Shown here piece after piece: positions 9,534 to 50,758 of a stretch of 64,000 bases of DNA (the first letter of the stretch is position 1; each line of letters begins with the position of its first letter). Made by a program: the position numbers and the translations under genes. A model generated the notes under the pieces. It made no database searches. It was given only the letters and a program-made list of their open reading frames with translations, and was not told the origin of the DNA. Origin of the DNA: Escherichia coli (GTDB lineage Bacteria; Pseudomonadota; Gammaproteobacteria; Enterobacterales; Enterobacteriaceae); the NCBI RefSeq assembly GCF_003334335.1, contig NZ_QOWQ01000004.1, one strand, 5' to 3'.

Positions 9534-12196
<2,663 letters not shown>

Positions 12197-12244
12197 GGTT
12201 TGGGTCCTTGTCTCTTTTAGAGCGCCTCGCTTCGGGCATAAAAA

Positions 12245-12275
12245 AACCCGCGCAATGGCGCGGGTTTTTTGTTTG
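12245..12275 (-). terminator. leu operon attenuator (intrinsic terminator)
   Basis: Minus strand AAACCCGCGCCATTGCGCGGGTTTTTTT: GC stem-loop plus T-run immediately downstream of leuL. Confidence 0.7.
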
Positions 12276-12288
12276 ACTGCGTGCTGGC

Positions 12289-12375
12289 TTAATGCTGGAT
12301 GCCGCTCACTCGTCTACCGCGCAAAGAAGATGCGTTTAGTAGTAGTAGACCGATAAAGCGAACGATGTGAGTCAT
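12289..12375 (-). CDS. leuL: leu operon leader peptide (28 aa, four consecutive Leu codons)
   Basis: Minus-strand [31 protein letters not shown] with CTA CTA CTA CTA run, followed by attenuator hairpin. Confidence 0.8.
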
Positions 12376-13034
12376 TAAATCAGCTCCAGATGAATGCGAT
12401 ATGCTTTTAGAGTTACTGGATACAAAAACGGATGTCAACCCTGACGCAATAAAAACGTCCCGCCAGCGTGAGTTCTGCATCCGTAAAATTAGCTAATTGT
12501 GCTGCGGTGGTTAAAGTAAGCGATATTAATTTCTGCTTAACTACCGACGCTTTTCATCGGTTGACATATTTCAGCATAAATTTTTGCATCTAATCAACGA
12601 GGAAAAAGGGGACAAAATGCACGCGTTGCAAAACCTATCCTGATGATTTGTATTGAATTATATGTTTTGCGATTTTTTTTGATATTGATTTGGTGAATAT
12701 TATTGATCAATTAATGTTAAGAATTAATGCATTAAATATATAAATTAATTATTAAATAAGCACATTTAATCCATTTTGTAGATGATTGAGTATTCGCGGT
12801 AGTTATGATTAGATTGTTTTCGCAACAAAAACATTATGGATTATTATGCTGTGGTAAATGACTCATTCCACGGCAATGGATTCTGTTTTTATCAGAACCC
12901 GTATCTTTATGTTTTCCGAATTTTACTCATTTTGCTTTTTCTTATTTTATATGCATGATAAATCATATTCTTCAGGATTATTTCTCTGCATTCCAATAAG
13001 GGAAAGGGAGTTAAGTGTGACAGTGGAGTTAAGT

Positions 13035-13979
13035 ATGCCAGAGGTACAAACAGATCATCCAGAGACGGCGGAGTTAAGCAAACCACAGCTACGCATGGTC
13101 GATCTCAACTTATTAACCGTTTTCGATGCCGTGATGCAGGAGCAAAACATTACTCGTGCCGCTCATGTTCTGGGAATGTCGCAACCTGCGGTCAGTAACG
13201 CTGTTGCACGCCTGAAGGTGATGTTTAATGACGAGCTTTTTGTTCGTTATGGCCGTGGTATTCAACCGACTGCTCGCGCATTTCAACTTTTTGGTTCAGT
13301 TCGTCAGGCATTGCAACTAGTACAAAATGAATTGCCTGGTTCAGGTTTTGAACCCGCGAGCAGTGAACGTGTATTTCATCTTTGTGTTTGCAGCCCGTTA
13401 GACAGCATTCTGACCTCGCAGATTTATAATCACATTGAGCAGATTGCGCCAAATATACATGTTATGTTCAAGTCTTCATTAAATCAGAACACTGAACATC
13501 AGCTGCGTTATCAGGAAACGGAGTTTGTGATTAGTTATGAAGACTTCCATCGTCCTGAATTTACCAGCGTACCATTATTTAAAGATGAAATGGTGCTGGT
13601 AGCCAGCAAAAATCATCCAACAATTAAGGGCCCGTTACTGAAACATGATGTTTATAACGAACAACATGCGGCGGTTTCGCTCGATCGTTTCGCGTCATTT
13701 AGTCAACCTTGGTATGACACGGTAGATAAGCAAGCCAGTATCGCGTATCAGGGCATGGCAATGATGAGCGTACTTAGCGTGGTGTCGCAAACGCATTTGG
13801 TCGCTATTGCGCCGCGTTGGCTGGCTGAAGAGTTCGCTGAATCCTTAGAATTACAGGTATTACCGCTGCCGTTAAAACAAAACAGCAGAACCTGTTATCT
13901 CTCCTGGCATGAAGCTGCCGGGCGCGATAAAGGCCATCAGTGGATGGAAGAGCAATTAGTCTCAATTTGCAAACGCTAA
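13035..13979 (+). CDS. leuO: LysR-family transcriptional regulator LeuO
   Basis: ORF 12858..13979 trimmed to [10 protein letters not shown]; LysR HTH ([38 protein letters not shown]). Confidence 0.9.
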
Positions 13980-14296
13980 CTGATTGCAGAATAGGTCAGA
14001 CATGAATGTCTGGTTTATTCTGCATTTTTTATTGAATGTAGAATTTTATTCTGAATGTGTGGGCTCTCTATTTTAGGATTAATTAAAAAAATAGAGAAAT
14101 TGCTGTAAGTTGTGGGATTCAGCCGATTTATTATCAATTTAATCCTCTGTAATGGAGGATTTTATCGTTTCTTTTCACCTTTCCTCCTGTTTATTCTTAT
14201 TACCCCGTGTTTATGTCTCTGGCTGCCAATTGCTTAAGCAAGATCGGACGGTTAATGTGTTTTACACATTTTTTCCGTCAAACAGTGAGGCAGGCC

Positions 14297-41886: not shown

Positions 41887-42110
41887 AATTTATATTCCCG
41901 GGAATTCATCATGATTATCAAAACGTTAAAAATGAGTGCACGAAAGCGAAATTGATGAAACGTTCGCTCACTATTTACCAGGTAAATTTATGGGATTGTA
42001 GCGTAAAAAAAGACAATTTCGCAGTCTTGCGCCGCATTGATTAGTGCGTATGATAGCGTCACTGGAGTTGCGCTCTTACCCTTATAGCCATTAACCCCAG
42101 GAATCCGCAC

Positions 42111-50218: not shown

Positions 50219-50710
50219 GAAACCTCGTGCGGTGGTTGTTTTTTTGATCTACGCAGTGATGCGTGTGTAAGTTTGCAATTCCGTTTGTTGTATTAATTTG
50301 TTTACATCAAAGAAGTTTGAATTGTTACAAAAAGACTTCCGTCAGATCAAGAATAATGGTATGCGGCAGCGAATGCACCCGCTTTATGCATGGTTGAAGA
50401 TGAGTTGCTTAAAAAGAAACCGTTTGTAAAGCTCAGCCTCAACCCCTCTCAATATGTAGAATGAATTTAAATTCGTTTTAATTGAATTAAAAATCACAAA
50501 ATTGGTAAGTGAATCGGTTCAATTCGGATTTTTATAGTTTAATAATCGTTAAAAAACTCCTTTCCTACGTAAAGTCTACATTTGTGCATAGTTACAACTT
50601 TGAAACGTTATATATGTCAAGTTGTTAAAATGTGCACAGTTTCATGATTTCAATCAAAACCTGTATGGACATAAGGTGAATACTTTGTTACTTTAGCGTC
50701 ACAGACATGA

Positions 50711-50727
50711 AATTGGTAAGACCAATT
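50711..50727 (+). promoter_or_regulatory. PdhR operator-like palindrome
   Basis: AATTGGTAAGACCAATT about 30 bp upstream of the pdhR start; GntR-type inverted repeat. Confidence 0.55.
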
Positions 50728-50758
50728 GACTTCGGCAAGTGGCTTAAGACAGGAACTC

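Follow-up and report, generated by a model that had tools for sequence, protein, structure and literature searches.

The region that silences leuO has been under dissection for 25 years; its primary mapping is said to be that of Stratmann et al. (2012), and an AT-rich silencer upstream of Salmonella leuO, together with a promoter relay, was reportedly described by Fang and Wu (1998) and Chen et al. (2001, 2005). The bgl operon is also H-NS-silenced and is activated by insertion of IS elements, by BglJ-RcsB, or by LeuO. In Escherichia coli, leuO is silent under laboratory conditions and repressed by H-NS and StpA (PMC5025477), and both of its promoters, the distal P1 and the proximal P2, are subject to this repression (PMC3950696), P1 showing full activity when hns and stpA are both mutated (PMC5025477, PMC3950696). 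The BglJ-RcsB box has the core wwTTCykA, and its centre lies 57 bp upstream of the P2 start (PMC3950696). LeuO site I at leuO contains a 19-bp palindrome almost identical to the core site of the cas promoter (PMC6698644), and the SELEX targets of LrhA include the leuO promoter (PMC12968389). A ChIP-seq study in Salmonella treats leuO as a locus that is known to bind H-NS and to be strongly repressed (PMC10981669). We take H-NS/StpA repression, P1 and P2, BglJ-RcsB activation, and LeuO autoregulation from this literature; our own analysis concerns composition, predicted physical properties, the pattern of conservation, and the place of conserved blocks.

The locus studied here matches the E. 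coli K-12 leuO regulatory region (Breddermann & Schnetz 2016, PMC5025477; Salscheider et al. 2014, PMC3950696) in its DNA, its neighbours, and its published features. In the window (i.e., the whole 64-kb stretch of DNA that was analyzed), where a coordinate equals the genome coordinate in NC_000913.3 minus 71,333, we found eight single-base substitutions relative to E. coli K-12 MG1655 (NC_000913.3 71334-135333). These lie at window positions 246, 22242, 23141, 26593, 48754, 54859, 60629, and 62864, none of them near leuL-leuO. The 3 kb around the leuL-leuO spacer are identical to MG1655 NC_000913.3 83000-86000, leuL-leuO itself being 100% identical. The interval 12481-13034 is the regulatory DNA that separates the divergent leuLABCD promoter and leuO in E. 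coli K-12, and the preliminary description had placed its boundaries correctly: leuO begins at ATG 13035, leuL occupies 12289-12375 (minus strand), and the leu promoter is at about 12398-12441. The MG1655 annotation has no features within the leuL-leuO spacer. The features of the region are as follows.

10625-12196, minus strand: leuA (annotation)
12240-12389, minus strand: leader/attenuator RNA of the leu operon (Rfam RF00512 Leu_leader, 145.8 bits; gathering score 50)
12289-12375, minus strand: leuL, leader peptide of 28 aa, inside the Leu_leader match (RefSeq b0075)
12398-12441 (about), minus strand: leuLABCD promoter block, read from the sequence (mean identity 0.95 in 80 species)
12481-13034: AT-rich spacer as flagged, which regulates leuO from upstream and is the target of silencing by H-NS/StpA (composition and literature)
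12490-12504: conserved footprint TAGCTAATTGTGCTG, resembling an Lrp site (conservation in 80 species)
12640-12800: AT core, GC 0.217, where the duplex is less stable than anywhere else in the window and the predicted curvature is high
12682-12700: probable core of LeuO binding site I, a 19-bp palindrome ATATTGATTTGGTGAATAT of the form ATATTGA-N5-TGAATAT
12721-12729: IS1 target site with a 9-bp duplication in strain 23CRST017 (locus L002), whose flanking sequence stops at 12729 and picks up again at 12721; the insertion is absent from this window
12858-13016, plus strand: upstream extension of the leuO ORF, non-coding (59 codons from ATG 12858)
12910-12924, plus strand: probable BglJ-RcsB activator box, the core TTTTCCGA at 12912-12919 fitting wwTTCykA
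12937-12971, plus strand: probable core of the proximal leuO promoter P2, TATGCATGATAAATCATATT (conservation and the box-to-start distance of PMC3950696)
13006-13019, plus strand: upstream Shine-Dalgarno GGGAG (13006-13010) and in-frame GTG (13017-13019), a possible start of a 320-aa LeuO
13035-13979, plus strand: leuO, LysR-type regulator, 314 aa as annotated (RefSeq b0076; ORF and translation)
14134-14178, minus strand: yabR, 14 aa (annotation)
from 14297: ilvI (annotation)

On the leu side, the -35 element of leuLABCD would be TTGACA (the complement of 12433-12438), and the -10 element is likely TAACTC (the complement of 12410-12415). The annotated leuO start has a Shine-Dalgarno sequence, GGAG, at 13025-13028, 6 nt ahead of ATG 13035. 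In a search of the spacer region against Rfam at a permissive E-value, the leu leader was the sole RNA family; matches to MIR2629 at 12490-12561 reached 18–19 bits, where the gathering score is 60, and were dismissed as chance. Small ORFs within the spacer (41, 38, 40, and 22 aa) were likewise rejected as genes, their sequence being poorly conserved and none being annotated. Beyond leuO, the leuO-ilvI spacer (13980-14296) is also AT-rich, with a GC of 0.31 at 13980-14133, and at the position of yabR two other E. coli strains carry what RefSeq calls a pseudogene, "too short".

Both of the systems named above that lie outside the K-12 leuO region resemble it in part. Salmonella leuO (loci L007 and L008) has an orthologous spacer of the same length with the same AT trough, and it shares with K-12 the P2 core, an activator-box-like block, and the start region. 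Its AT core, however, has largely diverged, the LeuO palindrome of 12682-12700 is undetectable there, and it was in E. coli that BglJ-RcsB control was shown. The silencer of the E. coli bgl operon is a different locus from the leuO spacer but is like it in having AT-rich, easily melted DNA, repression by H-NS/StpA, and activation by BglJ-RcsB (PMC3950696).

The preliminary description, made from the sequence alone, had called the interval markedly AT-rich and had quoted two AT runs from it, which are found at 12744 and 12679. A sliding-window check agreed: the 554 bp of 12481-13034 have a GC content of 0.309 (AT 69.1%) as compared to 0.526 for the window. Only 0.025% of 554-bp windows in the 64 kb are as GC-poor, and the absolute minimum among them, 12483-13036 (z = -5.7), is essentially the flagged region, so the AT-richness of 12481-13034 is far beyond chance. 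The lowest-GC 100 bp of the whole window (12659-12758, GC 0.15) also lie here. Duplex stability in 12481-13034 is the lowest of the window at scales of 50, 100, and 200 bp (z = 5.4–5.8), the TpA step has a frequency of 0.096 in the spacer vs. a window average of 0.041, and the spacer holds 16 near-consensus -10 hexamers where 2.1 would be expected from the window average. The DNA-curvature prediction that the preliminary description had proposed as a check places the spacer among the most curved DNA of the window (mean of 29.9 vs. 18.4 degrees), and two of the top six 150-bp windows by curvature fall in it (top 0.3%); these values come from our own implementation of the Bolshoy-Trifonov wedge model and are indicative only. 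By the same wedge-model calculation, the most curved 150 bp of the window are at 41946-42096, in the yacM-guaC spacer. The only comparable long spacer is that between aroP and pdhR (50219-50758, 540 bp, GC 0.35), which ranks second within the window both in AT-richness and in low duplex stability.

A scan with LeuO yielded a comparative set of 80 Enterobacteriaceae species, ranging from Escherichia to Atlantibacter. In 79 of them, as in the query window, leuA lies upstream of leuO and divergent from it, the remaining contig being too short to reach leuA, and the distance from the leuA ATG to the leuO ATG varies between 747 and 941 bp (median 813). Median GC across the species is 0.38 in the spacer, 0.48 in leuO, and 0.54 in leuA, and when the 79 loci are aligned on the leuO start there is a GC trough of 0.24–0.38 from -500 to -50. 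Sequence identity across species in the AT core is nevertheless only 0.4–0.7. The composition and length of the spacer have thus been kept while most of its sequence has not, which indicates that composition rather than sequence is constrained, and the pattern fits that expected of a physical constraint that reads composition, such as H-NS filament formation or duplex instability. Set within this diverged DNA are sharp conserved footprints: the leu promoter (12398-12441), a 15-bp block at 12490-12504, TTATGTTTTCC(G/T)AATTTT at 12908-12925, TATGCATGATAAATCATA at 12950-12967, and the Shine-Dalgarno and start region at 13003-13037.

Several of these footprints coincide with places where published elements of leuO control would be expected. 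The block that fits the BglJ-RcsB box is conserved in comparisons of both 14 and 80 species, and the P2 core is more strongly conserved than any other part of the spacer (identity of 0.92 in 80 species). By adding 57 bp to the box, we infer a P2 transcription start at ∼12970-12978, just downstream of the conserved TGATAAATCATATT, within which TAAATC and CATATT are candidates for the -10 element. A strict sigma-70 scan located neither P1 nor P2 and returned a single promoter-like site (TTCGCA-17-TATTAT, 12819-12847) as compared to 3.0 in shuffled sequences, and a terminator scan of the spacer returned none. RNA folding gave no significant structure for either the inferred P2 leader (12972-13070, z = +0.40) or a P1-type leader (12855-13070, z = -0.46). 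Within the AT core, the palindrome ATATTGATTTGGTGAATAT that probably forms the core of LeuO site I matches the cas-promoter palindrome ATATTCATACTGTGAATAT of the cas3-casA spacer at 15 of 19 positions; in four Escherichia loci its half-sites are kept and its central spacer is free to vary, and outside Escherichia the scores for a LeuO palindrome equal those of shuffled controls.

The preliminary description had read this composition as typical of H-NS-silenced promoters and as fitting a leuO that is normally repressed, and the published work supports it on both points (PMC5025477, PMC3950696, PMC10981669). We conclude, with a probability of about 0.92, that the spacer is the AT-rich silencing region of leuO, covered by an H-NS/StpA filament and with sequence-specific elements embedded in it. 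The AT core at 12640-12800 is the probable zone of H-NS nucleation and filament formation; the high-affinity H-NS 10-mer TCGATAAATT has two matches with two mismatches in the spacer (at 12703 and 12737), which chance alone could give. In the mechanism we propose, 550–660 bp of AT-rich, easily melted, and predicted-curved DNA would serve as the platform for a repressive nucleoprotein filament of H-NS and StpA, its paralogue, and this filament, lying over P1 and P2, would keep leuO off in ordinary growth. The embedded elements would be the BglJ-RcsB box ∼57 bp upstream of the P2 start, the LeuO autoregulatory sites, and perhaps a site for Lrp, and it is through such elements that activators, or supercoiling driven by transcription, would overcome silencing. 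The in-frame ORF extension upstream of leuO is an untranslated by-product of the stop-poor, AT-rich sequence of the K-12 lineage.

Other explanations of the AT tract have to be considered alongside silencing. It may act mainly as a supercoiling-sensitive, easily melted element that couples transcription of ilvIH, leuO, and leuLABCD, in the manner of Fang and Wu's promoter relay, H-NS being secondary. The spacer duplex is the least stable in the 64 kb at all three scales, the tract lies between divergent promoters (leuL on the minus and leuO on the plus strand), an ilvIH-leuO-leuABCD promoter relay and supercoiling coupling have been described at the locus (PMC4264507), and transcription from a cassette 427 bp upstream de-represses Salmonella leuO more than 10-fold (PMC10981669). 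In these same papers, however, supercoiling acts through or against the H-NS filament and not in its stead; the relay therefore complements the silencing explanation and does not replace it, and we consider a primarily melting role possible, though rather unlikely. It is very improbable, in turn, that the AT-richness reflects only ordinary intergenic or promoter composition with no special silencing role. Intergenic DNA is indeed AT-richer than genes in this window (pooled GC of 0.416 over the 24 intergenic regions that are 50 bp or longer, as compared to 0.535), and two short spacers are as AT-rich as that of leuL-leuO. The latter, however, is by far the longest of these three lowest-GC regions, and at 659 bp (12376-13034) and a GC of 0.329 it is well under the pooled intergenic value and contains the extreme of the window; moreover, its trough has been kept in 79 species though its sequence has not, and repression by H-NS/StpA is directly documented in print. 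Low GC and targeting by H-NS are also typical of acquired islands, and the tract could on those grounds be taken for what is left of a horizontal acquisition, kept silent as foreign DNA. We give this practically no credence: an AT trough and a spacer length conserved without conservation of sequence rule out a recent horizontal origin, the order leuA-leuL-spacer-leuO and its near-constant distance hold across the 80 species, and the K-12 spacer is without mobile-element genes or repeats.

The remaining alternative concerns the reading frame. The preliminary description had pointed out that the ORF track offers an in-frame upstream extension of leuO and had judged it non-coding; the extension does exist (12858-13979, 373 aa), and our results agree that it is non-coding, with the proviso that its last 18 nt, from GTG 13017, may be translated. 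Were it genuine, LeuO would carry a long N-terminal extension from ATG 12858 or ATG 12951, giving proteins of 373 or 342 aa. In K-12 the frame stays open for 177 nt upstream of ATG 13035, forms of 314, 320, 342, and 373 aa are all present in public databases, and an in-frame ATG at -72 to -84 (ATG 12951 in this window) recurs in many genera. Yet the length of the open frame ranges from 18 to 243 nt in the 80 species, only 9 of which keep at least 177 nt open, and the alignment of the extension contains one- and two-base indels, which are not multiples of three. In E. coli MS20658 and MA11, a T for G at 12918 creates an in-frame TAA (12918-12920) that cuts the open frame to 114 nt; this allele, identified in its exact 67-bp context, occurs in at least 1,040 of 5,376 complete E. 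coli genomes, and the exact 70-bp allele of K-12 in 2,665 of them. The extension overlaps conserved promoter and activator-box DNA, and the recurrent ATG falls inside the conserved P2 block TATATGCATGGTAAAT, upstream of the inferred P2 start. No Shine-Dalgarno sequence (GGAG, AGGA, or GAGG) was found within 15 nt upstream of either ATG 12858 or ATG 12951, and the predicted peptide is Phe-rich, as expected from translated AT-rich DNA. In the databases, more than 1000 contigs carry the 314-aa form, which RefSeq uses; the 373-aa form occurs on only a few tens of contigs, for the most part in older records of Shigella and E. coli, and it and the 342-aa form are sporadic older or automatic annotations only. 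A genuine extension is thus scarcely credible, and we conclude that the long extension is an artefact of annotation, arising from AT-rich DNA that is poor in stops. The G/T polymorphism at 12918 is also the "k" position of the probable BglJ-RcsB box, K-12 having G, and T being the majority state in other genera; the base at this one position decides whether the spurious extension stays open.

The final 18 nt of the frame are a separate matter. The leuO start region (13006-13042) consists of an 18-nt tandem repeat, GGAGTTAAGTGTGACAGT / GGAGTTAAGTATGCCAGA, of a Shine-Dalgarno sequence plus a start codon: GGGAG stands 6 nt before GTG 13017, and the two modules are in frame and 18 nt apart. Of the 80 species, 73 have a start codon at -18, and among these 65 have both starts and 8 (Kluyvera, Pseudocitrobacter, and others) the upstream one only, which in these eight is always ATG; the other 7 species have only the downstream start. 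The residues MT(V/M/L)E that follow from the upstream start are better conserved than the next 15, a comparison confounded by their partial overlap with the second Shine-Dalgarno sequence. The 320-aa LeuO is annotated on 101 contigs. No relevant study of leuO by ribosome profiling, or of its start codon, came up in a literature search. Judging from the sequence, GTG 13017 may add six residues to LeuO.

The 15-bp block at 12490-12504 also lacks a counterpart among the elements discussed so far. Its sequence TAGCTAATTGTGCTG contains the palindrome TTAGCTAA, and ATTGTGCT is ∼100% conserved in the 80 species, where both flanks have fully diverged. As compared to the Lrp consensus YAGHAWATTWTDCTR, reportedly that of Cui et al. 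(1995), TAGCTAATTGTGCTG agrees at 13 of 15 positions, though this consensus is degenerate and AT-rich. The aligned footprint has at most two mismatches to it in 56 of 80 species and at most three in 78, and the spacer contains four matches with at most two mismatches vs. 0.48 in its own dinucleotide shuffles (P ∼0.012). A preprint combining ChIP-seq and RNA-seq lists LeuO among the direct targets of Lrp (10.1101/276808). Because the consensus is degenerate, an Lrp site at 12490-12504 is put forward as a lead and not as an assignment. The best match to the Lrp consensus in the window has one mismatch and lies at 14039-14053, in the leuO-ilvI spacer, which is consistent with the known control of ilvIH by Lrp. 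Two small proposals, one in which LeuO is translated wholly or partly from GTG 13017 and one in which the ATTGTGCT footprint binds a regulator new to the spacer (Lrp being the candidate) and so affects both the leu and the leuO promoters, are tentative, and we would sooner expect them to fail than to hold.

Within E. coli, the spacer was present in 5,400 of 5,426 complete genomes. In two divergent strains, it was the most diverged of the segments compared, with an identity of 95.0–96.5% vs. 98.0–98.9% for leuO. IS1 was found inside the spacer in three natural E. coli genomes, 23CRST017, GD33, and H16. In 23CRST017 (L002, 1331-2097), the sole insertion that was mapped, the element sits in the AT core, and in this it resembles the IS insertions that activate the H-NS-silenced bgl operon. 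A literature search for IS insertions upstream of leuO found nothing specific.

The leuO control region is a textbook H-NS/StpA-silenced region that was already known, and the present analysis adds nothing to the silencing story. The region is useful, rather, as a positive control, as a reading made from the sequence alone correctly picked out both a silenced promoter of the H-NS type and a spurious extension of the ORF. Any new value may be limited to the conserved upstream GTG start and the 15-bp footprint at 12490-12504. If GTG 13017 is used, LeuO would be a protein of 320 aa beginning MTVELS-, and the annotated 314-aa form would have an incomplete N-terminus or would be one of two isoforms. 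LeuO is a master antagonist of H-NS that controls CRISPR-Cas, bgl, multidrug efflux, and virulence genes, and the region by which it is itself silenced is therefore biologically important.
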